Shown here piece by piece: positions 30,712 to 44,975 of a stretch of 64,000 nt of DNA; the first letter of the stretch is position 1, and each line of letters opens with the position of its first letter. The stretch is from positions 12,456-76,455 of the forward strand of contig NZ_CANMTE010000007.1 of assembly GCF_947500795.1 (NCBI RefSeq), given 5' to 3'. Below the pieces are notes generated by a model. That model was not told the DNA's origin. It ran no database searches and saw nothing but the letters and a program-made list of their open reading frames with translations. The position numbers and the translations under genes were made by a program. Source of the DNA: an uncultured Gelidibacter sp. GTDB lineage: Bacteria; Bacteroidota; Bacteroidia; Flavobacteriales; Flavobacteriaceae.

Positions 30712-32625
30712 TTAGTTCTTTTTAGCCCACCATAATGGTGTAGAAACCTCATCAGGACCGCCTAATTTATCAACAGCTTGTCCATATCCAGTTGGAATAT
30801 TACTTCCAAAGTTAGATGGGTATTTTAAACGCTGTCCATAGAATTTAACGCTATTGGTCAGGTAATTTCCAGGTGTTAATTCTGGCATATTGGTTAAAGG
30901 TGTTTCAATTGCTGGATTTTCAAAGAATGGTAACCCAAGTCTTCTGTGGTCACTCCAAGTTTCCAATGGCAACCATGGCGTTTGAGCAATGAACTTTTGA
31001 GTAATAATCTTAGTTAACAGATCATTCTTTACTGTTCCATTCTTATAAATAGTGTTTTCAGGATACTTTAAAGTATGTGTTCCTGTAGCACCAGTATAAC
31101 CATCTTTGTAAGTCATAGTCACTGTTGCAGGTGGCTCAGTAGTATGTGTCCAACTTACTGACGTCCCTACTCTGTTATAATCTTGCGAAGTAAGATAAGT
31201 GTCTAATTGAGCAGACACGCCATTGTAAGCAAAACTATCAGCAATACCTTGCTCATAAGCTACTTGACCGCTCATTGGAACATTCCAACCTCTTACTGCT
31301 GCTTCAGCAATTAAGAAATAAGATTCCCATGATGCGAAAAAGATTCTAGCACTACTGCTATTTCTGTATTTATTGGCCAAACGTGGTAAAGTTCCTGTGT
31401 AACCGTATACTTTATTCTTAGCACCTTTAGTTCCCCAGTTACCTCCTGCGTAAGCATTCCATGTAAAAGCGGCATCTATTTCTTTAACCACATTATCAGA
31501 ACCGTCTACAAGAGTTCTTTTAGTAGTTCTGGCACCATTGGTCCAAGATGGGTAAGAGTTGAATTCAGGATCATTAAAATCTCCAGGAATTACAAATAAA
31601 TCATAGGCTCTTGGATCGATTTTGTTATGCAAACCATCAAAAAAGAACCCTGCAGATGGATCATTCGTCATGGTTGTAAAATGGTCAGCAAACTTAAGCC
31701 CCATATAATTTGCTGGCTTAATGTATTGTTGTTTATCAGCCGATAAAACAGCTGAAGATGGTACACCACCTAAACCAATCATTAGGTTGTTAAGTGTTGC
31801 AGATACTTCATGATCCCACCATTCTCTTGTCATCACACCAGTGTAGTCATTCCATCCTGGAATTTCTTTCACTTTGAAATTATCAGCTGCTACTTTAATA
31901 AAGTCATCAGCTACTGCACTTTCAAACTCTGTTCTTGCTTTTTCTGCATCAACTTCAGACAAACGCATCGCTAAACGCATTCTTAAAGAGTTTCCGTATT
32001 TTTTCCATTTCGCATAATCATACCCATAAGCTGGATCTAATTTTTTTAATGCGTCATCAGGATTTGAAATATCAAGATTTAGTGCATTTGTAGCTTCTTT
32101 TAACTCTTGAAGCATGTAATAGTACACATCCTTTACTTCACTGTATTGTGGATTTTCACCTTGGAAACCATCAATTGGAATTGGTCCAAAGTTATCAGTC
32201 ATTTCGCTCATCACATAGGCGCGCCAAATTCTTGCCACTTCCTTAAGATTTGGAGTGTGCTCTCTATATTTGCCAGATGCGATTTGATTTTCAGCTACTT
32301 TTATCCCAGCATTGATATTTCTTAACCAAGAGGATACATAACCATTAAAATAATCACTTGTCCAACCATCATTTTGACTGCCTTCAGATAGCGTTCCAAC
32401 TCTAGTCATTCTACCAGCATCATCCCAATACAAAACGAATACACGCTCTGAGATATGTGGATTTTGTTGCGCTCCTCCAATAGAACTATTGATAAAATAT
32501 TCTATCTGTACCTGCTCTTCATTTGCCGCGACCGGGTTGACGTTTATTTCTTCAAACTCAGAACATGATAGAAATGCCATTAGCACTCCACCCATCAAGC
32601 CTGCTTTTTTTAATATTTTCTTCAT
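30712..32625 (-). CDS. susD: SusD/RagB-family glycan-binding lipoprotein
   Basis: Lipobox FLSC; SEMTDNFGPIP, KWKKYGNSLRMRLAMRLS, IITQKFIA, WSDHRRLG; directly downstream of susC. Confidence 0.95.
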   Translation of the reverse strand: MKKILKKAGLMGGVLMAFLSCSEFEEINVNPVAANEEQVQIEYFINSSIGGAQQNPHISERVFVLYWDDAGRMTRVGTLSEGSQNDGWTSDYFNGYVSSWLRNINAGIKVAENQIASGKYREHTPNLKEVARIWRAYVMSEMTDNFGPIPIDGFQGENPQYSEVKDVYYYMLQELKEATNALNLDISNPDDALKKLDPAYGYDYAKWKKYGNSLRMRLAMRLSEVDAEKARTEFESAVADDFIKVAADNFKVKEIPGWNDYTGVMTREWWDHEVSATLNNLMIGLGGVPSSAVLSADKQQYIKPANYMGLKFADHFTTMTNDPSAGFFFDGLHNKIDPRAYDLFVIPGDFNDPEFNSYPSWTNGARTTKRTLVDGSDNVVKEIDAAFTWNAYAGGNWGTKGAKNKVYGYTGTLPRLANKYRNSSSARIFFASWESYFLIAEAAVRGWNVPMSGQVAYEQGIADSFAYNGVSAQLDTYLTSQDYNRVGTSVSWTHTTEPPATVTMTYKDGYTGATGTHTLKYPENTIYKNGTVKNDLLTKIITQKFIAQTPWLPLETWSDHRRLGLPFFENPAIETPLTNMPELTPGNYLTNSVKFYGQRLKYPSNFGSNIPTGYGQAVDKLGGPDEVSTPLWWAKKN

Positions 32626-32643: not shown

Positions 32644-35600
32644 TTAGAAACTTAACGATACATTTAAAAACACACTACTTGTAGTAGGTGATGATAGGTA
32701 TTCAAAACCTGTTGCATTGGTTGATGTTGCAAAAACAGATTCTGGATCAATACCGTTCAAGTTGTTTTTTATCATCCATACGTTATTAGCCGAAAGACCA
32801 ACTTTAGCACTTTGAAGTCCTGTATTACCTAACCATGATGATGGCAGTGTATAGTTTAAGTTAATATTTCTTAATCTTATGTTTGTAGCATCATAGATGT
32901 TTGCTTCATTGATACCCAAGTTTCCTGATCTTCCTGTAATTTGCTCCCAGTAACGTTGTGGAGAAACTGCCGTTGTATTAGCTGTATATCCTCCATTTCC
33001 ATCACTTACAACACCATCTACAATAATATCATTACGCTCTCCATTAACCACTGTAACGGCTGCATTTCCTGAACGTTGTAAAGCGTGGTTTGAACCTGAG
33101 AATATTTCTCCACCTAAACGTGCATCAATCAATACTCCTAAAGATAAGTTTTTGTAGGTAAACGTATTTGAGAAACCAACCATAGCATCAGGCTGTTGTT
33201 CACCTAATTTGAATTTTTCACTGCTGGCAGTAGGTATTCCGTCGCCATCTACAATAATTTTACCAAAATTAGGACTAGTTTCATCTTGAACTCTTGAGAA
33301 TCTTGTTCCCCAAATTTCACCGTAACCACCACCTTCAACAGCTAGAACAGATAAATTGTCAAAACCTCCTAAACCGTATTGTGTAACATCTTCAGACAAA
33401 CGCTCAATAGTGTTGTCGTTTTTAGAATAGTTGATGCTTGATTCCCAATTGAAGCCTTCTGGATTGTGAATGATTTTTCCGCGAAGTGCCAATTCAAAAC
33501 CTTTATTTTGAACATCACCTGCGTTTACTTTCTTAGAGTTATAACCACTTAATGGATCTAGAGGCAATGAGATTAATTGGTTGGTAGCGTTAGATTGGTA
33601 CCAAGCAAAATCCAATGCCAAACGGTTATTAAAGAATCGTCCTTCAAACCCAATCTCTTTAGATTTGATCAACTCACTTCTTAAATCTGGATTGTATAGC
33701 GTATTATTAGTTCCTGCAGTAGTATTTCCATTAGGATCAGAACCTATAGAATAGAAATTATATAATTCATAAGGTCCTAAATCATTACCTACAGTTGCAT
33801 AAGATGCTCTAATTTTACCAAAGCTTATCCAGCTTGGTAATTCTGAGCCACCTTTAGTTAACATTTCTGTAAATACAAATGATGTACTAACTGATGGATA
33901 AAAGAATGATCTGTTGTCTTTACTTAAAGTTGAAGACCAGTCGTTACGTCCTGTAAAATCCACAAATAAGAATCCGTCATAATTAACTTGGAAGGTTCCG
34001 TAAAGAGAGTTTGTTCTTCTTTCTGATGAACCTTGGTTTACACCTGGGCTGTTCACACCGTTATTCAATGAGAATAAGTTAGGCACCACAAGCTCTCCTG
34101 AACTACCGCTGATATTGTTAGATCTTCTTGCCATTAAATTTCCACCAAGAGTAATCGCACCACCAAATTTACCAACAACGTCATCCTGACTTGCCAATAC
34201 TAAGAAGCTGTAGTTTGTTTCAATAAAAGAATCTTTACCAAAATCATATCTACCTGTGTTATTACCTGGGCTACCAGAATATAATTTAGATTCTGAAGTT
34301 GTCGTATATAAATCTGCTCCAGCTTTAATTTCAGAACTTAACCAATCATTGAATTCATATTTCAAAGATCCATTTAATAAGAAACGATCTCTTGCATCAT
34401 CACTTAATCTGTTTTTAGCAGACCAATATGGGTTTTCTGCATTTTTATCAATAAACCATCTCATTTTTCCGAATTCATCTGAGTGGTTCTCAAATTGAGT
34501 CACATCTAAAGATACCGGTAAACGTGCAATGGTACCAAATGCGTTATTAACGTTACTACCATTTAAAGGTCTGTTTTCTGCTTTTGCATTAACATACTGT
34601 ACTTTAACATCTGTAGTCCATCTCTTATCTTCACCAAATTTAGATACCGCTCTTGTCATTAAGTTCAAGCGCTCCAAAGTAGATCCAGGGATGTTACTAT
34701 CATCATTTAAATAGTTAACTGAAGAGTAAAGTGACGTACCATCTGATACTTGTTGTTGAAATGAAAGGCTATAAGTTTGGTTAAAACCACCTTTATAGTA
34801 GTTCCCTAAATTGTCATAAGCACGTAAAGTAGTTTGCTCATTTTTCCAATCTGTTACCGTTTGTCCTTCAATTCTAGGACCCCAGCTTACTGTTGATTGA
34901 GCACCGTAAACACCTTCACTACCCTGTCCGAAAATTGTTTGAGTATCAGGCTCAATAAACAATCTTTCAAAACTAGTAGTTGCAGAGAATGTAATCCCTA
35001 AACCTTTTCTTGCTTTACCTGTTTTTGTTGTGATTAAGATAACACCGTTACCCGCACGAGAACCGTACAATGCCGCAGCAGATGCACCTTTTAAAACCGT
35101 CATGGTTTCAATATCGTCTGGATTTAAATCTCCAAGACCGTTACCCATATCTTGAGATGGGTTAAAGAAATCGGTATTGTCAGCACCAGTAAAGTTGTCC
35201 ATAGGAATTCCGTCCACCACAATTAAAGGTTGATTATCTCCAGTAAGTGAACTGTTTCCTCTTAAAACAATTTTTGAGGAACTCGCAGGTCCATTACTAC
35301 CTTTAATAACCTGAACACCCGCAATCTTACCTGATAAAGCATTGACTACGTTGGTTTCTCTGGCTTCTGTTAAGGCATCACCCTTAACTTCCTGAACCGC
35401 ATATCCTAAAGATTTACGATCTCTTTTAATCCCAAGAGCGGTAACTACCACCTCATCCAACTGACTAACATCTTCTACAAGCGACACATTAATGGTGCTT
35501 TGCCCATTAACACGAATTTCTTGTGTTGCGAAACCGATGTAAGAAAATTGCAAAGTGCTTGCAGCATCGGATACTTCAATACTGTAATTACCATCAAAAT

Positions 35601-35766
35601 CCGTTGTTACCCCTTTGGAAGTGCCTTTTACGATCACACTAACGCCCGGAAGTCCCAAATTACTTGCAGCATCTACAACAACTCCTTTTACCGTTGTTTG
35701 TGCTTGCATACCATAAGTGCAAAGAACGCCTAACACAAACAGTAAATTAAGTACCTTTTTTGTCAT
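32644..35766 (-). CDS. susC: SusC/RagA TonB-dependent transporter
   Basis: TDFDGNYSI, LDEVVVTALG, PLIVVDGIP, LKGASAAALYGSRAGNGVILITTK; C-terminal Phe. Confidence 0.97.
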   Translation of the reverse strand: MTKKVLNLLFVLGVLCTYGMQAQTTVKGVVVDAASNLGLPGVSVIVKGTSKGVTTDFDGNYSIEVSDAASTLQFSYIGFATQEIRVNGQSTINVSLVEDVSQLDEVVVTALGIKRDRKSLGYAVQEVKGDALTEARETNVVNALSGKIAGVQVIKGSNGPASSSKIVLRGNSSLTGDNQPLIVVDGIPMDNFTGADNTDFFNPSQDMGNGLGDLNPDDIETMTVLKGASAAALYGSRAGNGVILITTKTGKARKGLGITFSATTSFERLFIEPDTQTIFGQGSEGVYGAQSTVSWGPRIEGQTVTDWKNEQTTLRAYDNLGNYYKGGFNQTYSLSFQQQVSDGTSLYSSVNYLNDDSNIPGSTLERLNLMTRAVSKFGEDKRWTTDVKVQYVNAKAENRPLNGSNVNNAFGTIARLPVSLDVTQFENHSDEFGKMRWFIDKNAENPYWSAKNRLSDDARDRFLLNGSLKYEFNDWLSSEIKAGADLYTTTSESKLYSGSPGNNTGRYDFGKDSFIETNYSFLVLASQDDVVGKFGGAITLGGNLMARRSNNISGSSGELVVPNLFSLNNGVNSPGVNQGSSERRTNSLYGTFQVNYDGFLFVDFTGRNDWSSTLSKDNRSFFYPSVSTSFVFTEMLTKGGSELPSWISFGKIRASYATVGNDLGPYELYNFYSIGSDPNGNTTAGTNNTLYNPDLRSELIKSKEIGFEGRFFNNRLALDFAWYQSNATNQLISLPLDPLSGYNSKKVNAGDVQNKGFELALRGKIIHNPEGFNWESSINYSKNDNTIERLSEDVTQYGLGGFDNLSVLAVEGGGYGEIWGTRFSRVQDETSPNFGKIIVDGDGIPTASSEKFKLGEQQPDAMVGFSNTFTYKNLSLGVLIDARLGGEIFSGSNHALQRSGNAAVTVVNGERNDIIVDGVVSDGNGGYTANTTAVSPQRYWEQITGRSGNLGINEANIYDATNIRLRNINLNYTLPSSWLGNTGLQSAKVGLSANNVWMIKNNLNGIDPESVFATSTNATGFEYLSSPTTSSVFLNVSLSF

Positions 35767-35978: not shown

Positions 35979-38900
35979 TTATTTAACACGCGTTGTAAAT
36001 CCTACTGCACCAACACCAGTATTAGCATCTACAAGCCATGGCCCGCGATAAGGCATTTTAGTGTTTGGATATGTATCTCCTAAAAGATAGGTAAGAAGAG
36101 CACCTTTTTTAATGCGTTTTCCATTTAGGATGATGTGCAACTTTTTAGGGTTTTTAGAATGGACTTTCAACTCAGAAATTGAAGTAATTTTTTTAGAATT
36201 GATTGCAAATAATTGATCTTTTACGGAATAAACATGACCGTCCACTTTTAAGTCTGGCTGAATGGCTATAGGCTTGTCAAATTCGATAATTAGGGATTTA
36301 GCCGATTCTCGTGTTGCGCTCACTAATTGCGGCGCTTGATAGTCTACGGTGCCGTTATAAAAATCGTATATCGCCAAATTTGAAATCCAATCCGCCAACA
36401 CCTCATAACCATGCGCGTGGTAATGGCAGCCGTCTGACAAAAAATAATTGCCATCAAATAAAGGATTTTCTGGGAATCCATGACGCGTAATGATTTTCAC
36501 TTCTGAATGTTCTTCAGCAAATTGTCGTTGTGCTTCTCTCACCGTTTGATGCCCGCTTGATACGCTACATCCTGGCGGGGTTTGAACCACGTAAAATTTT
36601 TCAAATGTATAATCTGATTTGAGATTTTCATACAATTGATAAAGTGCGTTTTTATAATCAGACACCGAATCGCCCGCGTTACTTTCACCTTGATTCCAAA
36701 TAAATGCTTTGATGTAGTGCTTTAGTCCCGATGCGTCTAATTTGTGTTGCAATCGCCCGTAAGCTGCATTTAAACCATAATCGTTTTTTTGATAGGATGC
36801 AATGGCACCACCTCCGCCTGCACCGTTAATGATGGCGATGGGCACATTTTGAGAAGCTACTAAATTCAGACCAATATTCGAACCCAACACGCCCACCATG
36901 CCGTTGCCAACACGCTCTCCTTTCCCAACAATATCTGGTGCTTTCCCACTGGCTATATACCAGTCTGAGTTTTCAGCTTCAGGATAGATGGCTGGACTAT
37001 TGTACAAATGCATGGCACCAATGGTTCGCACCCATTGTGCATTTGAAGACAAACTTTCTTGATTATACACATTATCATAATCTATAGCCCAAGCGTTAGA
37101 TTGGCCACTTAACACGTACACATCACCAGCAGTGATATGCGTGGCTTTTTTAATCAGATAATCTTCATTTTCATGCTTAGCGAAGAGTTCAATGGTATAA
37201 TTGTGTTTTAGGGCTTCAATTTTTAAAGGAAGTGAAAAAGCACCATTTACACCCATGGCATGCTTCGTAATAATTCCCTTATCACGATGTACTTTTATAA
37301 GGATACTATCCACGCTACTGTCGGCAATACCAGAAACAGTTATCGTGGCGTTGTTAGTCGCATCTCTTGCATAGAGCTGATTGTCTTTGGGGAATTCAGT
37401 TACGGAAACCTTTGGCTCCGTATTAAAAACAGCTCTGAATTTTAAATCGTCCACCTCCTTAACAGCACCATTTTCTAAATGTATTGGCACACAGGTGAAC
37501 ATCCACTTCCATGAATTCTTATCTTGAGGAATTTTTAAAAGCACTTTATTCCATCCTTTTTTAAGGGCGATTTTAGTAGGTGCTCTAAAGAAATAATCTT
37601 CGTCTATAAATGGGATTTCGTCAGTTCGGGTACCTAAATTAGGTTGCTTCCAAACGGGCGGCGCTATTTCTGTTCCATTCACCCAAATTTTAGGATTGGT
37701 GGTATGCCATTGCCCCTGATCAGGAAATGGGCCTACACGTCTTCCGCCGGAGCGCGACCAACCCTGAAACCCTAACCAGAAATCCTGTACCCGATCGTCA
37801 GGCGCATAAATCTCCGTATAGGCATAATAGGTTCCTGTTTGGTCAGTAGTTAAAGCTGGAAATCCGAAAAAATGTTTAAAATGCGTCGTCCCACCAACGA
37901 TAGGTTGTGACCATTTATAATCTTTTCTGTCTATTTTATATAAAGCGACCAAGGAATCCTCAACTGGGAATCGCAGGTTCACATCGCCATTATGTTTAAA
38001 CGGCCCGATGACGTTCCATTCAAAGCTCGTTTGACGTACATATTGAAATTCTTTTCCATTAAAGAATAGGTCCCGGTGAGTGACGACTTTGTCTTCAAAC
38101 GCTATAAATTCCTTTAATTCTTTTGAACCGACTGGTGGCAACTTCGCCCAATATTCGAGCTTATTTTCTGCGCGTCCTTTCCAAATCGCATCCGCATAAA
38201 ACACGATGGATGGATAAATCGGATTTTGAATTAATATATCGCGCTCCTTGGCCACATTATTATCGGGCCACGCTGCTAAAATGCCGCCCAAGGCTAGAGC
38301 ATCACTTTGTGGTTGACGCGTAGGCTGTTGAAAAAACACCCGCGCCATTCCCGCAAAAGGATCTAAATGATTGATATAATTGGCGCGCGAATCTATAAAA
38401 CGATGTCCTTTACGTGGCGAGTGCTGTGCCCATAACTGATTGATGGAAGTGGAATCGTCTTCAATTTCAATGCCTTCTTTCCAAACAATAAGCTCTCTGT
38501 TTTTAGATTTGACACGATCCATGATGGTTTTGATAAACCCGTCTGGAACATATTCTTCCTTATTTCTAACTTCATCCGTACCAATATGAATGTACGGCAT
38601 CTCATCAGCGCTTGCCAAACCCATCAATTCATCAAACAAGTCCAATAAAACAGGGAGCGCCCGCTCATCTTTCATGTTTTCAAAACCCATCGCGTTTCTA
38701 AAAGCACGCGAATGTCCTGGAATATCAAATTCCGGAATCACGGTAATATGCCGTGCTTTACAAAATGCCAAAATCTCCTTAAAATCGTCTTGGGTGTAGA
38801 ACTTTCCTTTCCCTCGTGACGTAGCGTCTTCATTCTGCAATTGCGGATACAACTTACTCTCAAGTCGCCACCCTGGATCGTCAGTTAAATGCCAATGGAA

Positions 38901-39461
38901 TACATTGTATTTGTATTGGGACAAAACTTCCAACTGCTCTTTTAATTGGGCGACCGATTGGAAATTTCGGCCGGTATCGTGCATAAATCCTCTGATTTTA
39001 AATGCTGGCCAATCGGTGATTTGCAATTGTGGGATGACACCATAATCGTTCTGCTGTCTGAACACTTGTTGCAATGTTTTTATAGCATAATACGCGCCTT
39101 TTGCAGTGGTGGCCCATATTTTTATCTCAGAATCGAGTTGTATCTTATAGGCTTCTTCAGCATTATGAACCGGAATATGCTCCTGGATCATCTGGATTTT
39201 TAAACCGTCCGACGCTTCTGAAATACCATTGTTTTGGAAAAACGATTTCAATTGATTAGACTCACTGACAAAATCAGTTTTTACAATTTGAAAGGTCTTA
39301 AAGCTCACTTCACTCTTTCCGTATTCAATTTCCTGAGGTGTTGGTATGATGGGATACTTCTTCTCTAGAATATTTTTTTGAGTGGTACCAGCATAAACCT
39401 GGATCATCCCTATAAGGATGAATGCCACAATGCACCCAATATTTTTATAAGATAGATTCAT
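35979..39461 (-). CDS. Fusion: GH20 beta-hexosaminidase plus C-terminal SASA/CE6-like SGNH O-acetylesterase
   Basis: GH20: RGFMHDTGRNF, HWHLTDDPGWR, PEFDIPGH, IHIGTDEV. SGNH: VLSGQSNA, GAGGG, WNQGESN, DGCH. Probable start MNLSY at 39461 (ORF track 39491 overlaps GH27). Confidence 0.85.
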   Translation of the reverse strand: MNLSYKNIGCIVAFILIGMIQVYAGTTQKNILEKKYPIIPTPQEIEYGKSEVSFKTFQIVKTDFVSESNQLKSFFQNNGISEASDGLKIQMIQEHIPVHNAEEAYKIQLDSEIKIWATTAKGAYYAIKTLQQVFRQQNDYGVIPQLQITDWPAFKIRGFMHDTGRNFQSVAQLKEQLEVLSQYKYNVFHWHLTDDPGWRLESKLYPQLQNEDATSRGKGKFYTQDDFKEILAFCKARHITVIPEFDIPGHSRAFRNAMGFENMKDERALPVLLDLFDELMGLASADEMPYIHIGTDEVRNKEEYVPDGFIKTIMDRVKSKNRELIVWKEGIEIEDDSTSINQLWAQHSPRKGHRFIDSRANYINHLDPFAGMARVFFQQPTRQPQSDALALGGILAAWPDNNVAKERDILIQNPIYPSIVFYADAIWKGRAENKLEYWAKLPPVGSKELKEFIAFEDKVVTHRDLFFNGKEFQYVRQTSFEWNVIGPFKHNGDVNLRFPVEDSLVALYKIDRKDYKWSQPIVGGTTHFKHFFGFPALTTDQTGTYYAYTEIYAPDDRVQDFWLGFQGWSRSGGRRVGPFPDQGQWHTTNPKIWVNGTEIAPPVWKQPNLGTRTDEIPFIDEDYFFRAPTKIALKKGWNKVLLKIPQDKNSWKWMFTCVPIHLENGAVKEVDDLKFRAVFNTEPKVSVTEFPKDNQLYARDATNNATITVSGIADSSVDSILIKVHRDKGIITKHAMGVNGAFSLPLKIEALKHNYTIELFAKHENEDYLIKKATHITAGDVYVLSGQSNAWAIDYDNVYNQESLSSNAQWVRTIGAMHLYNSPAIYPEAENSDWYIASGKAPDIVGKGERVGNGMVGVLGSNIGLNLVASQNVPIAIINGAGGGGAIASYQKNDYGLNAAYGRLQHKLDASGLKHYIKAFIWNQGESNAGDSVSDYKNALYQLYENLKSDYTFEKFYVVQTPPGCSVSSGHQTVREAQRQFAEEHSEVKIITRHGFPENPLFDGNYFLSDGCHYHAHGYEVLADWISNLAIYDFYNGTVDYQAPQLVSATRESAKSLIIEFDKPIAIQPDLKVDGHVYSVKDQLFAINSKKITSISELKVHSKNPKKLHIILNGKRIKKGALLTYLLGDTYPNTKMPYRGPWLVDANTGVGAVGFTTRVK

Positions 39462-39468
39462 TATTTTT

Positions 39469-40656
39469 TTATTTTGACAATCGGTAGACAATCACATCTC
39501 GAGATGGCACCTCAATAGATAATTTCGAACTTGTATTGCCCATCATTTTGTCTTCCCATAAATCTTTAATTTGGTATACGTTCTCTGCTGAAAAATCTTT
39601 GATGTTGATTTTTGTCCAATCCACTTCATAGGTTTTAGTAGCGATGTCTCGATTAAAGAAGCAAATGGCAATGTCGCCGTTAGAAAGCGGTTTTTGCCAA
39701 ATTTCAAAATTTCCAAGATCAACAATTTTAAACCCTTGTTTTCCCAACACATCCTGATTGACTTCTAATAATCCTTTATGGGTTAAAATATGCTGATCCG
39801 TAGCATTCATAGTGCGTAAATCGTTGCCTGCCATTAAAGGTGCTGCCAACATACACCACATGCTAAAATGTGCTCTTGCTTCGTTTTCAGGCATCCCATT
39901 GTTGCCCACAGCCAACATATCCGGATCATTCCAATGTCCCGGTCCCGCATATTTTTCTAAGCCAACTTGCATGTCAACCAAGTCAGACCATCCAATCAAA
40001 TTACCCCAAATATTGCCGTCATAGCGGCCATTCATATCAATATCTAAGGTCGTGCGCCATAAGTGACCCACGTCCTTACCCCATTCCCATGGTTTGTTTT
40101 CACCCCATTCGCACAGGCTAAAAACAATAGGTCGGCCTGCTTTATATAGCGCGTCTCTCATAAGTGTATAGGATGCTATGGCATCTTGGCCTTCCGTAAA
40201 GCACCAATCGTATTTTAAATAATCAACACCCCACTTGGCATAGGTTTCTGCATCTTGCATTTCAAACCCTTTACTTCCAGGACGCCCAGCACAAGTTTTT
40301 GTACCCGCATCAGAATAGATGCCGAATTTCAAGCCTTTAGAATGCACATAATCAGCCAAACTTTTAATCCCTGATGGAAATTTCTCCTTATCAACAATGA
40401 TATAGCCGTTATCATCACGACCTATCTGCCAACAATCGTCAATAACAATGTATTCATACCCAGCGCCCTTAAGCCCCTTTTCAACCATAGCATCAGCCAT
40501 CTCCTTAATGACGGTTTCATTGACACCCTCACATTCAAAACTGTTCCAACTATTCCAACCCATTGGTGGTGTTTGTGCTAAATTTTCGAATTTTTGTGCC
40601 GTACTTTTGGTGGCGAAACCAAAGGCTAAAACGATTAAAAGAAACTTGATTTTCAT
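39469..40656 (-). CDS. GH27 alpha-galactosidase / alpha-N-acetylgalactosaminidase
   Basis: TPPMGWNSWN, YIVIDDCW, YLKYDWC nucleophile, WRTTLDI acid/base, WNDPDML; signal peptide. Confidence 0.95.
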   Translation of the reverse strand: MKIKFLLIVLAFGFATKSTAQKFENLAQTPPMGWNSWNSFECEGVNETVIKEMADAMVEKGLKGAGYEYIVIDDCWQIGRDDNGYIIVDKEKFPSGIKSLADYVHSKGLKFGIYSDAGTKTCAGRPGSKGFEMQDAETYAKWGVDYLKYDWCFTEGQDAIASYTLMRDALYKAGRPIVFSLCEWGENKPWEWGKDVGHLWRTTLDIDMNGRYDGNIWGNLIGWSDLVDMQVGLEKYAGPGHWNDPDMLAVGNNGMPENEARAHFSMWCMLAAPLMAGNDLRTMNATDQHILTHKGLLEVNQDVLGKQGFKIVDLGNFEIWQKPLSNGDIAICFFNRDIATKTYEVDWTKINIKDFSAENVYQIKDLWEDKMMGNTSSKLSIEVPSRDVIVYRLSK

Positions 40657-40671
40657 GGTTATATATTTTTT

Positions 40672-42753
40672 TTAATTTGAAAATGTGGATGCTGGCAATC
40701 CGGCATCATTGACTAAATTTCCGTTGGAAAAGGAACTATACACATACCTTACAAAGCGAGGGGTTTCAATTTCCGGGGACCAAATTTGCAAGACGTCATT
40801 CACGATTTTACTGTGTGCAGGAACAAATGTCTTGTCCGGTCCCGCAATATAAATATCATTCACAGAAGCGTTTCCTGGTGTTTTCAAACCTTGTCCGTGT
40901 TTAAAATGGACTTCCAACCTATTCTTGTTGACGTTTACAAAGTCTAAAAGTGGTCCGGAGAAAGAATTCTCAACACCATAAGTTTTATGAAGTGCTATTT
41001 TAGAAAGTCGCTCGCCCACAACCCATTTCTGTTTTGGATGCACATCAGTTTCATGGCCCACATCCAAACTGACCGCCATACCTGTATTTGGAATTTCCAA
41101 TAATCGGCGTTGCGAATCCCTAAACTCTCCCCAATTTGGACGATTGATACTGCTCAACTGCACATAATAAAAAGGCAATTCTGGAGTCTTGAAATGGCTA
41201 CGCCAATCGTCCACCAACAGTTTAAATAGTTTCGAATGCAAGTTGACATGCTCGGTATTTGATTCGCCTTGGTACCAGATGACGCCTTTTATTTTGTAAT
41301 CTCTGATGGGCATCACGCCTCCATCAAAGAGCATTGTTGGATGATAGGGATGTCTTGCCCTAATCCCATTCTTAGAAAGGCCTTTCATATTTAAAGCCGC
41401 ACGCTCTGCCACCCAAGTATCAACTTTAGGATGCAAGTGGGTATCATTAAGCAAACTCACGGTCTCAGGATGCTGTTCCATCGACTCCCTGCTGATCCAA
41501 CTTTGAATGGGCGCTCCACCCACAGCATTGTTAATGATTCCAACAGGAACCCCTAATTGCTTTTGAAGTTTATAGGCGAAGGCATAGGCTACTGCGGAAA
41601 AATCGTTTAGGTTTTCGGTTGTCGATGGAATCCATCCAGAGTTTTTGAAATACGAGTTGGCATTACATTCTTTAAGTTCAGCTTCTGTGTATGGTTTGTT
41701 AGACAATACTTTTCCGTCCATTGAGAATAGAAACACTTGCGGATTAAGGGAATCTTTTAAAACGGTCGCCGCATGTTCCATCTCACGGACTTTAAAGTCC
41801 ATGTTAGACTGCCCTGAAGCCAACCAAACCTCACCTATATACACCGACTTTATTTCAATAGAATTTTCAGCCGTTGCAAACTTTAAGGCATAAGGACCGC
41901 CTGCTGGCATTGGAGGAAAAGTGACCTGCCATTTGCCATGCACATCAGCTTTTGCTGTTTTCGAAACGTTGTTAAATCGAACAGTAATAGTTTCATCAGC
42001 ATTAGCTGTACCATTAAAACTAATCGGTTCATTACGTTGCAATACCATATTCTCGCCGTAGAGCACAGGGAGTTTTAATCCGCCGTAATCCCCAGTAAGA
42101 GCAGCATACACTTTATCGGCGATAACTGTTGCACCTTCTTTGGTGGGATGTAAATTATCAGGAAAGTATTCAGGAAATCTATAAAGTGGCTCGTGCAAAT
42201 CGATGACTTGTACTGCTGCTTTCTCGGCAATGCCTTCTATTTTTACTTGGATTTCCTTAAAACTTTCGCGCATGCCTTCTTCAAACCAATGGTGTCCAGA
42301 AAACGTGGGCGTCATTTTGCAAATCATAACTTCAGGCTTTGATGGCAGATTTTTGTAGAGTGCAATCATTTCCAAATAATCCTGTTCAAATTCGGCGTGG
42401 TGGTCTGGCCAGTTATTATTGCCTTGATCGTTCAGGCCTAAATGAATGATGACAATGTTAGGCCCAAAATCTTGTGACGCTTTAAATTGGGACGTTTTCC
42501 AATAAGGTTTATGTCCGTTTTTAAGCATAGTCGCCCCGGAATATCCAAAGTTTCCCACCTCGTAATTTGCGCCTAAACGCTCTTGCAGTTGTTGCGGATA
42601 GGAATTTTCTTCACGATCCTCAATTCCTGCCCCGAAGGTCACACTATCCCCCACACAGGCAACTTTTATGGTTTGGGAATTTAATAGGAAAGAAGAACAC
42701 AACATTAAACTCAGTAAAATTATGCGGTAATTATTTGAAGACTTTTTCATCAT
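40672..42753 (-). CDS. Two-domain sialate O-acetylesterase (GDSL/SGNH + SASA)
   Basis: VACVGDSVT...HLGLND...DNLHP, then WLASGQSNM...WYQGESN...DVHP. Probable start 42753 or 42750 (ORF track 42792). Confidence 0.9.
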   Translation of the reverse strand: MMKKSSNNYRIILLSLMLCSSFLLNSQTIKVACVGDSVTFGAGIEDREENSYPQQLQERLGANYEVGNFGYSGATMLKNGHKPYWKTSQFKASQDFGPNIVIIHLGLNDQGNNNWPDHHAEFEQDYLEMIALYKNLPSKPEVMICKMTPTFSGHHWFEEGMRESFKEIQVKIEGIAEKAAVQVIDLHEPLYRFPEYFPDNLHPTKEGATVIADKVYAALTGDYGGLKLPVLYGENMVLQRNEPISFNGTANADETITVRFNNVSKTAKADVHGKWQVTFPPMPAGGPYALKFATAENSIEIKSVYIGEVWLASGQSNMDFKVREMEHAATVLKDSLNPQVFLFSMDGKVLSNKPYTEAELKECNANSYFKNSGWIPSTTENLNDFSAVAYAFAYKLQKQLGVPVGIINNAVGGAPIQSWISRESMEQHPETVSLLNDTHLHPKVDTWVAERAALNMKGLSKNGIRARHPYHPTMLFDGGVMPIRDYKIKGVIWYQGESNTEHVNLHSKLFKLLVDDWRSHFKTPELPFYYVQLSSINRPNWGEFRDSQRRLLEIPNTGMAVSLDVGHETDVHPKQKWVVGERLSKIALHKTYGVENSFSGPLLDFVNVNKNRLEVHFKHGQGLKTPGNASVNDIYIAGPDKTFVPAHSKIVNDVLQIWSPEIETPRFVRYVYSSFSNGNLVNDAGLPASTFSN

Positions 42754-42760
42754 AAATAAG

Positions 42761-43462
42761 TTATAGCGATCCAACAATCCAAAGTACAACATACGGCGAA
42801 ATAAGTGTGGTCAGAATTCCATTGACACACATGGCCAATCCACTATACGCGCCGGGTAAAGGTCCGATTTCAATAGCACGCGCAGTACCGATACCATGTG
42901 CTGCGGTCCCGAGCGCCGTTCCTACAGCGGTCTGGCTTTTGATGCCTATTAACCTCAAAAATCCCGATCCAAAGGCATTTCCAAAAACCCCTACCGCAAT
43001 CACAACACCTGCCGTTAAGGAAGGAATTCCTTCAGTGATTTTGGTGATTTCAATCGCTATTGGCGTGGTGACTGACATGGACACAAGTGACCTGATGAGC
43101 ACATCAGGAGCATGCATCGCAATAGAAATTAAGGATACCGAAGCAATACTGATGATACCGCCACAACCTACGGCCAATAAAAAAGGGTAAATGTTATGTT
43201 CGATCAGTTGGTATTTTTCATAAAAGAGAACACCAAGCGCTACAATGGCTGGTCCCAGAAAAAAACTCAAATATTGTCCGCCTTTATTATAATCCTCAAA
43301 AGGGATATCAAAAACTACCAAAAACAGAATAATGAGTGTAATGGCTACTAAAACAGGATTAAATAAAACGAATTTTATTTTGGACCGTAAAGCTCGCGCA
43401 GCAAAAAAAACCACGACGGTAAGAAGAATGCCAAAAACGGGAAGCTGATAGAAGTCAATCAT
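42761..43462 (-). CDS. lrgB: LrgB-family membrane protein
   Basis: FLGPAIVALG, SVTTPIAIEI, ALGTAAHGIGTARA; probable start MIDFY at 43462, overlapping the lrgA stop (ATGATTGA). Confidence 0.92.
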   Translation of the reverse strand: MIDFYQLPVFGILLTVVVFFAARALRSKIKFVLFNPVLVAITLIILFLVVFDIPFEDYNKGGQYLSFFLGPAIVALGVLFYEKYQLIEHNIYPFLLAVGCGGIISIASVSLISIAMHAPDVLIRSLVSMSVTTPIAIEITKITEGIPSLTAGVVIAVGVFGNAFGSGFLRLIGIKSQTAVGTALGTAAHGIGTARAIEIGPLPGAYSGLAMCVNGILTTLISPYVVLWIVGSL

Positions 43463-43847: not shown

Positions 43848-44975
43848 TTATTTTTTCTTAGGTTTTTGATAGGTGTCTGCACCATCAGTCAACCAATTTA
43901 GTGAAAAACTCACAAATGGATTCTTAGTATAGTTATCTTGTTCAAAGAACAATCCGATATCACCATTATCAAGAATTGTCATCTCTGAATATGCAGAAGA
44001 CCCTTCATAAATAGTTTTTCCTTCTGACCAGGTTTTTCCTTCGTCATAACTGATACGCACGGTCATATTAACACGTCCTTTTTCAGATTTCGCATTTGAA
44101 AAAAGTAGTCTGTTCTTTTTGTAACCATCTTCAATTGACGTATAGCGAATGATGCTGGCATTACATCCTGGATCAATCAACTCTGGCGCAGGAACGGTAG
44201 TCCATGATTTTCCTTCATCTGTAGAGGTGTGCACGTAACGTAAGCCTTTGCCATTAACACGAGCGTTGATCATTAAGGTACCATCAGCAAGCTCAATCAC
44301 TTTGGATTCGTCAGCTGGTTGAATTGGCGTGTCTATAAAATACCAAGTTTTACCGTGGTCATCACTACCAAACAAGTGTAGGCCACTATTCAAATTCACC
44401 ATGGTATGCAATAATTTGCCTGAGCGGGTTTGGATACCTCTTCCTGAAGTGATGAATTTAAAATCTTTGTGCCATTCTGATTTCGCGATTTGTGAGGTAA
44501 TATCTACCGGTTTACTCCAGGTTTTACCGTTATCAGAACTCTTCACATAATGTAGGTAATAGATATCTTTTTCAGTATCCAAATTCATATAATTATAGAA
44601 CATGAAAATCTCATTGGTTACGTGATCTACAATAAATGAAGGATCAGAAGCTGATTCACCATAAGGGAAATCGACTGCCGTTTCAATATCTGACCATGTT
44701 TTCCCATTATCAGCGCTTCGTCTGACAATAATATTAATGTCCTTACTGAATTTCAAATCGCCACAGCCAGGCACACGTTCATCAATTGCCGCAATCACAT
44801 CGCCATTTGGGGCGGTAATAATGGCTGGAATACGGTAACACTCTACACCTTCAGTCATTGAAGTGTTGAACAAATCTTGAAATACGGGCGCACCATCATT
44901 TGTGCTCGTGTTTTGGGTTTTTACACCGCAATTAAAAAGGAATACTGGAATCAGTAATGCAATTAGTTTTCTCAT
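43848..44975 (-). CDS. nanH: GH33 exo-alpha-sialidase, catalytic-domain-only lipoprotein
   Basis: Lipobox LFNC; YRIP; five Asp-boxes (SADNGKTW, SSDNGKTW, SDDHGKTW, STDEGKSW, SYDEGKTW); catalytic residues in ADESK, NAR, KGR and SAYS. Confidence 0.93.
   Translation of the reverse strand: MRKLIALLIPVFLFNCGVKTQNTSTNDGAPVFQDLFNTSMTEGVECYRIPAIITAPNGDVIAAIDERVPGCGDLKFSKDINIIVRRSADNGKTWSDIETAVDFPYGESASDPSFIVDHVTNEIFMFYNYMNLDTEKDIYYLHYVKSSDNGKTWSKPVDITSQIAKSEWHKDFKFITSGRGIQTRSGKLLHTMVNLNSGLHLFGSDDHGKTWYFIDTPIQPADESKVIELADGTLMINARVNGKGLRYVHTSTDEGKSWTTVPAPELIDPGCNASIIRYTSIEDGYKKNRLLFSNAKSEKGRVNMTVRISYDEGKTWSEGKTIYEGSSAYSEMTILDNGDIGLFFEQDNYTKNPFVSFSLNWLTDGADTYQKPKKK

Follow-up and report, generated by a model that had tools for sequence, protein, structure and literature searches.

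Fusions of a glycosidase to an esterase are known among plant-cell-wall enzymes, and the breakdown of marine O-acetylated sialoglycans is, to our knowledge, poorly known. The described systems closest to the gene considered here are (i) the stand-alone family 20 glycoside hydrolases (GH20) of Bacteroidota and Akkermansia, which are exo-acting and are encoded in glycan loci; (ii) the mammalian sialic acid 9-O-acetylesterase SIAE; (iii) glycan-acting SGNH esterases of the SASA type; and (iv) the NanS/EstA-type esterases of Bacteroidota. For relatives of the gene, a further precedent is dnaX, in which a -1 frameshift occurs at A_AAA_AAG in Escherichia coli and transcriptional realignment at a run of nine A residues (A9) in Thermus thermophilus (PMC3711429, PMC5009743). 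We analysed a stretch of 64,000 nucleotides (the window) from an uncultured Gelidibacter sp. (contig NZ_CANMTE010000007.1, positions 12,456 to 76,455), in which a gene on the minus strand, at 35979-39461, joins a GH20 hexosaminidase to an SIAE-like O-acetylesterase.

With a probability of roughly 0.7, we consider this gene an in-frame, bifunctional fusion of the two enzymes, the relatives' version of which is kept across a poly-A tract by slippage. Over this interval, 1160 codons and a stop follow each other in one frame without a break, as had been claimed, with the right coordinates, in an earlier reading of the letters and their open reading frames (ORFs; hereafter, the original prediction). 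It runs from an ATG at 39461 (MNLSYK...) to a stop codon at 35979-35981. A mechanical ORF list also offers a TTG at 39491; as a start there would run into the upstream GH27 gene (39469-40656), overlapping its end by 23 nt, while the ATG sits 8 nt past the GH27 stop codon and opens a typical signal peptide, the ATG is the likely start. In the translation, the start codon and N-terminal signal peptide comprise residues 1-24 (MNLSYKNIGCIVAFILIGMIQVYA, 39390..39461; this and all other features of the gene lie on the minus strand), with cleavage predicted from the sequence to precede the G that follows. The signal peptide resembles type I, being without a lipobox cysteine behind the hydrophobic core, and Pfam detected no Por_Secre_tail or other C-terminal domain of the type IX secretion system (T9SS) in the protein; on these two grounds the fusion protein is probably periplasmic.

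Pfam places Glyco_hydro_20b, Glyco_hydro_20 and SASA in this one protein, and all of its matches exceed the curated cut-offs. Glyco_hydro_20b covers residues 36-151 (39009..39356; PF02838, E 9.3e-14, 52.7 bits versus a cut-off of 26.1) and is followed by the catalytic (beta/alpha)8 domain at residues ~154-470 (38052..39002; PF00728, E 9.4e-44, 150.6 bits versus 22.3). The catalytic Asp-Glu pair, D296/E297 (nt 38571-38576), lies within the motif HIGTDE (292-297), which is retained in the consensus of 75 relatives. Sequence matches of this half to GH20 enzymes in the Protein Data Bank (PDB) reach down to E 3e-36, and Foldseek matched the N-terminal part to the GH20 structures 8PXT, 6YHH, 3GH4 and 4PYS (E ~1e-23 to 1e-25). 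The protein thus has the sequence features of a GH20 member, namely Glyco_hydro_20b with a TIM barrel and the adjacent Asp and Glu of substrate-assisted catalysis. Behind the barrel, residues ~481-676 (37434..38021) form a beta-rich domain that has no Pfam match but is evident from the AlphaFold2 (AF2) secondary structure, in which residues 481-690 are mostly beta; it is common to stand-alone GH20 relatives of ~680 residues, which cover 56-59% of the query.

The esterase module begins after a junction at residues 676-692 (RAVFNTEPKVSVTEFPK, 37386..37436), defined by the end of stand-alone GH20s and the start of mature stand-alone esterases. It consists of an N-terminal Ig-like beta-sandwich (residues 693-775, 37137..37385; strands 7-97 in the AF2 model), a contiguous SGNH/SASA domain delimited by PF03629, motifs and fold matches (residues 776-1035, 36357..37136) and a C-terminal beta-sandwich seen in AF2 models and kept in stand-alone esterases of ~515 residues (residues 1036-1160, 35982..36356). 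PF03629 itself matches residues 779-997 (E 9e-15 to 1.6e-15, 55-58 bits versus a cut-off of 24.8). The nucleophile S788 (nt 37098-37100) lies in GQSN (786-789), the Gly-rich block INGAGGGG at about 877-884, N928 in QGESN (924-928), and D1010 and H1013 in DGCH (1010-1013; the His at nt 36423-36425), so that all four SGNH blocks (Ser, Gly, Asn, DxxH) that mark the SASA family are present. In an alignment of 43 relatives, with identities down to 30%, the G-Q-S-N and Q-G-E columns do not vary, nor do the Asp and His of DxxH, and the QGExN Asn is at least 90% conserved. AF2 modelled the C-terminal 471 residues with a predicted local distance difference test score (pLDDT) of 91 and a predicted template modelling score (pTM) of 0.92, returning the same three-domain order. 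The Asp-Glu pair, the middle beta-rich domain and the intact SGNH motifs named in the original prediction are thus all in place.

The same in-frame fusion was found in about 15 independent isolates, metagenome-assembled genomes (MAGs) and metagenome contigs, with esterase parts 62-94% identical; the best named match is from Gelidibacter sp. F2691 (94% identity). At the protein level, GH20 plus SASA fusions of 1152-1167 residues occur in nine further clusters (P0002-P0010, from NCBI, JGI, ENA and Logan; 66-94% identity). At the DNA level, the in-frame fusion is present also in a Maribacter MAG and six metagenome contigs, the in-frame loci (L027, L030-L035, L037-L039) coming from unrelated projects, and among the in-frame fusions the junction is colinear, without any change in length.

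Nonetheless, the fusion is rare: outside Gelidibacter, it was found only in the Maribacter MAG and in metagenome lineages of marine origin. Of 401 evenly sampled Flavobacteriaceae genomes, only three, all from Gelidibacter, encode a close orthologue of the esterase half, and within the genus seven of 16 species do so. The esterase subfamily as such is larger: a HMMER scan of 1.84 billion representative proteins yielded 812 clusters (E<=1e-10; clustering at 50% identity). Nine long members of the subfamily that we checked contain no GH20; they carry Laminin_G_3, F5/8 type C, BACON, MAM and BNR_assoc_N domains, which are of lectin type. A distant member of the esterase family, P0308, combines the same type of esterase with a neuraminidase N-terminal domain. 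Full-text literature searches retrieved no paper on the GH20-SASA architecture, and in that portion of the GeneTack survey (PMC3711429) which a term search covers, no hexosaminidase, acetylesterase or glycosyl hydrolase appeared. The literature searched thus contains no description of a sialoglycan locus in which a GH20 is joined to a complete SIAE-like esterase; together with the rarity in the genome and protein scans, this agrees with the view in the original prediction that the architecture was not known as characterised.

Comparison with unfused relatives indicates how the gene may have come about. Most orthologues of the GH20 half have ~680 residues and end at the RAVFNTEPKV junction (676-685), which the original prediction had correctly singled out as the fusion point. 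One of them, P0327 (688 residues, from a Logan contig of 36742 bases), belongs to the ~90% cluster of the window protein and ends ...LKFKAGFSTKP, exactly at the junction, so that the unfused state exists in a very close relative. Conversely, ~35 clusters of stand-alone esterases (493-522 residues, 45-70% identical across the whole esterase part) carry their own signal peptide or lipobox; in P0122, P0123 and P0131, the signal peptide is followed by ...SFPKNYQLYARD, which matches the window protein from residue ~690. Several of the stand-alone esterases lie on contigs equal in size to those that encode ~680-residue GH20s, and the accession numbers of the two stand-alone proteins are consecutive in Joostella; the adjacency of the stand-alone genes rests only on these shared contigs and accession numbers. 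Since stand-alone GH20s end, and mature esterases begin, at the junction, the fused gene would have arisen from two adjacent genes once the stop codon of the GH20 and the signal peptide of the esterase had been lost.

A second fusion was also identified. In ~10 clusters of proteins of ~875 residues (e.g., P0060 of Aureibaculum conchae), a member of the same GH20 orthologue group is joined to an SGNH esterase of a different type, GDSL_2 (PF13472), attached at the same C-terminal point of the GH20 as the SASA module. That two separate fusions involve two esterase types argues that the GH20 and an O-acetylesterase may share a substrate. It also bears on the reading, in our view a somewhat unlikely one, that the fusion is a near-neutral accident following the loss of the stop codon and signal peptide, with halves that work independently and without catalytic benefit. 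Separate, fused and fused-with-shift states do coexist and repeatedly switch within a single genus, and stand-alone forms outnumber the fusions, as would be expected of an accident; however, the two independent fusions argue for selected coupling, and the fused form persists over the deep divergence between Maribacter, the TARA lineages and Gelidibacter. In the esterase tree, the deep branches (Maribacter, TARA, L033, L035 and L039) are in-frame fusions without an A tract.

In ten lineages, three of them named species (G. sediminis, G. salicanalis and G. gilvus) and the other seven represented by MAGs or metagenomes, the fusion is unexpectedly broken 85 residues past the junction, where an A9-A10 tract lacks one base (L001:10297-10307, L002:10297-10307, L004:4475-4485, L005:5273-5283, L006:5273-5283, L007:5300-5310, L008:5295-5304, L009:5268-5278, L028:3956-3965 and L029:3956-3965). 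These loci are annotated as a GH20 of 762-789 residues followed by a "sialate O-acetylesterase" of ~380 residues. The break is located in a hairpin ahead of the last Ig-like strand, not at the fusion point; hence, the two-gene annotation in these congeners results from the short tract and does not mark a gene boundary. Variants of the tract include TTT CAA AAA AAA AAG GAC, GAA AAA AAA AAG GAG, GTA AAA AAA AAG ATG and GCA AAA AAA AAA GAA. In the window, the equivalent codons, F760-E766 (TTC GCT AAG CAT GAA AAT GAA, 37164..37184, located by DNA alignment and junction tables), are in frame and contain no homopolymer, and in the absence of a tract, this allele would yield only the full-length form.

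The esterase continues in the -1 frame in all ten shifted lineages, +1 being needed in none, and the -1 product, ...ELFQKKKGLETLIK(R/S)A.H.TAGDVYVLxGQSN, is colinear with the in-frame fusions without a change in length. In all ten, the zero-frame codons of the tract form an A_AAA_AAG heptamer at the homologous codon. This is the dnaX-type slippery heptamer, and runs of at least nine A residues are classical sites of transcriptional slippage (PMC3711429, PMC5009743, PMC1088944). Such a tract is not unusual by itself, A9G being present ~45-58 times in each Gelidibacter genome; what stands out is its conservation at one homologous codon, combined with an intact and selected -1 frame. Elsewhere in the window genome, a scan for pairs of genes that meet at a run of at least eight A residues returned only ordinary gene boundaries. 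The assemblies that contain the tract come from different projects, the SPAdes titles of two isolates giving 144-178x coverage, and one allele with eleven A residues (A11) was assembled in frame, which speaks against systematic miscalling of the homopolymer.

Independent translation of the esterase ORF was considered as a route to an active secreted enzyme in the shifted lineages and was ruled out, because this ORF has neither an ATG nor a signal peptide. In the -1 frame upstream of the catalytic Ser, stop codons occur 29-39 codons before it, with no ATG between; the best alternative starts are GTG or TTG codons 4-7 codons before the Ser, and three lineages have no start codon at all. With such poor starts and no signal peptide on the separately started ORF, the resulting esterase would be without its first strand, sometimes without its nucleophile, and in the wrong compartment. 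Yet the -1 frame is stop-free for 382-385 codons in nine lineages, and no catalytic motif has been lost (the DxxH motif of G. sediminis reads DACH, with the Asp and His preserved). dN/dS of the shifted esterase frame (NG86) is 0.06-0.16, and uncorrected pN/pS, the nonsynonymous-to-synonymous ratio, is 0.278 among shifted versus 0.298 among in-frame lineages; from this similarity we conclude that the shift has brought no relaxation of selection on the esterase. The downstream ORF is thus conserved, under purifying selection and without an initiation signal of its own, as is typical of recoded genes. The esterase half is likely to be expressed in these lineages, whether through RNA slippage, a -1 ribosomal slip or rapid phase variation, and transcriptional slippage or -1 ribosomal frameshifting is the most likely source of a full-length enzyme.

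Several observations weigh against the reading as a bifunctional sialoglycan enzyme whose relatives are recoded. The arrangement of domains in the full-length AF2 model (mean pLDDT 82.7) is only moderately confident, with a pTM of 0.64 that permits no statement on channelling. The esterase is only weakly similar in sequence to characterised esterases, the closest PDB entry being 2APJ (E 3e-5), and its fold equally matches XAC1771 of Xanthomonas citri and CE20 esterases, which act on non-sialylated glycans, so that the fold does not fix the substrate. For the shifted relatives, folding of the 75 nt downstream of the tract revealed no conserved stimulatory RNA structure (z-scores -2.0 to +1.5), and no Shine-Dalgarno-like or hairpin stimulator is shared at the tract, a small hairpin (CACUUAUUAAAAGUG) being present in some lineages only. 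A stimulatory element is not needed for transcriptional slippage. Finally, the unshifted product truncates the Ig-like domain before its last strand, which would suit a tolerated defect better than a purpose-built isoform.

In a more specific proposal, to which we assign slightly less than an even chance, recoding does take place at the A9-A10 tract, both in the three named species (G. sediminis, G. salicanalis and G. gilvus) and in at least seven uncultured relatives, and a GH20-only and a bifunctional product would be made in a ratio set by the tract. Its competitor, which concerns these relatives only and which we hold to be rather unlikely, is that the break is a switch at the DNA level, due to slipped-strand mispairing, or a recent decay at a mutational hot spot. 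Tract length indeed differs by one base between near relatives: the sister of G. salicanalis (A10), JGI metagenome Ga0114916_1000126, reads C A11 GGA and is in frame (L031:2919-3006). Likewise, the shifted L008 is sister to L037, which is in frame (AAA AAA AAG GAT), and the window and L030, neither having a tract, are sister to the shifted G. sediminis; overall, the esterase tree needs at least 4-5 switches between the two states. The genome G407, annotated as G. salicanalis in NCBI, has an in-frame junction without a tract (L023:1509-1900), and a second A9 run within its esterase (TAT CAA AAA AAA ACT) needs a -1 shift, although an error is possible in this assembly of 690 contigs; one MAG has a break outside any homopolymer. 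These cases, together with the missing stimulator and the domain cut short, would fit a switch or decay. On the other hand, the shifted sisters L005 and L006 share the tract across a pS of 0.54 without decay, selection on the esterase is unrelaxed, all ten lineages need the same -1 shift, and each isolate assembly is a clonal consensus. Slippage and phase variation could also operate side by side.

With regard to function, the gene belongs to a locus for sialoglycan utilisation in a marine Gelidibacter, where it is flanked by genes that are all on the same strand and is situated between GH27 and SusC. Downstream are SusC (32644-35766) and SusD (30712-32625). Directly upstream is GH27 (39469-40656), then a NanS-like double esterase with GDSL_2 and SASA domains (40672-42792), LrgB and LrgA, and a GH33/BNR sialidase (43848-44975); further upstream follow, in order, a creatininase-family protein, an AGE-type GlcNAc 2-epimerase and a divergent GntR regulator, beyond which lie YhcH, a NanA-type lyase and a second SusC/D pair. 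The whole 3.46-Mb genome has six GH20 genes and only two SASA (PF03629) genes, at 40672-42792 and 35979-39461; as both are in the sialic-acid locus, three esterase domains are concentrated there. An origin of the fused esterase as a recent duplicate of the SASA domain of the neighbouring NanS-like protein was ruled out, local identity between the two being only 27-30%. Taken together, the locus context, the SIAE fold match and the second GH20-esterase fusion support a functional link of the fusion to sialoglycan breakdown, and only that; marine O-acetylated sialoglycans, such as the mucins of fish and echinoderms and gangliosides, are plausible substrates. The interpretation in the original prediction is to this extent partly supported: the order of action that it proposed, de-O-acetylation ahead of HexNAc cleavage, goes beyond the evidence, and the substrates that it named (O-acetylated HexNAc, GM2/GD2-type gangliosides and Sda epitopes) are speculative.

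On the bifunctional reading, two neighbouring genes of a flavobacterial sialoglycan locus would have been joined, the esterase losing its own signal peptide, to give one secreted polypeptide of 1160 residues with two independent active sites, both halves being predicted to be active. From the sialic acid or a neighbouring sugar of imported sialylated oligosaccharides of host type, the esterase would remove O-acetyl groups that stand in the way of trimming, and deacetylation would then let the sialidase, GH27 and GH20 of the locus trim the glycan, the GH20 removing terminal beta-N-acetylhexosamine (beta-HexNAc). The fusion would fix a 1:1 ratio of the two activities and hold two sequential steps together. 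In the shifted relatives, the full-length enzyme would be obtained through an extra A added by RNA polymerase or through a -1 slip of the ribosome.

Alternatively, the esterase half may deacetylate a sugar other than sialic acid (O-acetylated HexNAc or Gal, acetylated chito-oligosaccharides or peptidoglycan fragments) and so directly prepare the GH20 substrate, which we judge unlikely. The locus already has the NanS-like double esterase, to which the fused SASA domain is only distantly related; XAC1771 and CE20 carbohydrate acetylesterases are among the fold neighbours; and the esterase is joined to a hexosaminidase rather than a sialidase, a second esterase type being fused to the same GH20. 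Nevertheless, the rest of the locus is that of a sialic-acid locus, the best fold match of the whole module is SIAE, and P0308 pairs this type of esterase with a neuraminidase N-terminal domain. As for an assembly chimera or sequencing artefact joining two genes, which the original prediction had named as its possible undoing and which the two-gene annotations of G. sediminis, G. salicanalis and G. gilvus might suggest, it deserves practically no weight: with the same in-frame architecture and a colinear junction in ~15 independent assemblies, and the congeners' split due to the poly-A tract, the fusion gene is real and not a chimera.

The gene represents a "Rosetta stone" link, strengthened by the second GH20-SGNH fusion, by which the GH20 and an uncharacterised esterase subfamily of about 800 clusters are predicted to act on the same O-acetylated substrate; the specificity of the esterase thereby becomes directly testable. 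The relatives, in turn, constitute a natural allele series, comprising separate genes, in-frame fusions, an A11 tract in frame and A10 or A9 tracts out of frame, that is suited to testing poly-A slippage in the expression of a secreted enzyme outside the classical bacterial cases. If the tract is indeed used, it would be a new case of chromosomal recoding in Bacteroidota, of which the window carries the tract-free, always-fused version.

Two further observations concern the surroundings of the gene. In the window, genes at 508-28463 form a long same-strand run, with GH92 and a sodium:solute symporter among them, that resembles a utilisation arm for N-glycans or mannosides adjoining the sialic-acid locus. 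In G. sediminis, the esterase ORF is separated from SusC by an extra BNR sialidase-like gene (L001:11674-14514), encoding 946 residues with GEVED and a T9SS Por_Secre_tail, which neither the window nor G. salicanalis has.

Compared with the described systems, the window protein combines features otherwise found apart. With the stand-alone GH20s of Bacteroides fragilis (4PYS), Flavobacterium johnsoniae (FjGH20, 6YHH) and Akkermansia (8PXT), it shares GH20b, the (beta/alpha)8 domain and the H-x-G-x-D-E motif, but it is only ~16-25% identical to them in structural alignments and has in addition the beta-rich domain and the C-terminal esterase. Its whole C-terminal 471-residue module superposes on the full length of mammalian SIAE, from the N-terminal beta-sandwich through the SGNH domain to the C-terminal part (8F9O, 8F9P, 8F9Q and 8F9R; TM 0.61-0.64 by Foldseek), and both belong to PF03629; however, identity is ~14-15%, and the window module is bacterial and fused to a glycosidase. 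Fold scores are similar for XAC1771 (7KMM) and for CE20 (9EGA, 9H4U; PMC12313940), which are likewise glycan-acting SGNH enzymes of SASA type. Membership in CE20_II would entail an ancillary domain inserted in the SGNH domain, whereas the latter is contiguous in the AF2 model of the window module, and the sequence match of the esterase to 9EGA is split and weak. With the NanS/EstA type (GDSL_2 plus SASA), exemplified by its neighbour at 40672-42792, the fused esterase shares the type of locus and one Pfam family, while local identity is ~27-30%, the domain layout is different and no glycosidase is attached to NanS/EstA.

The likeness to dnaX concerns the relatives and not the window: the zero-frame A_AAA_AAG heptamer is present in their A9-A10 tract, where a -1 shift or one extra A would bring back the long product. 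In contrast to dnaX, the shifted product would be the long fusion and not a short form, no stimulator was found, and the protein is a secreted glycan-degrading enzyme. The fusion is best regarded as a variant of multi-catalytic glycan-degrading enzymes, made more interesting by its link to the esterase subfamily and by the candidate site of recoding in related lineages.

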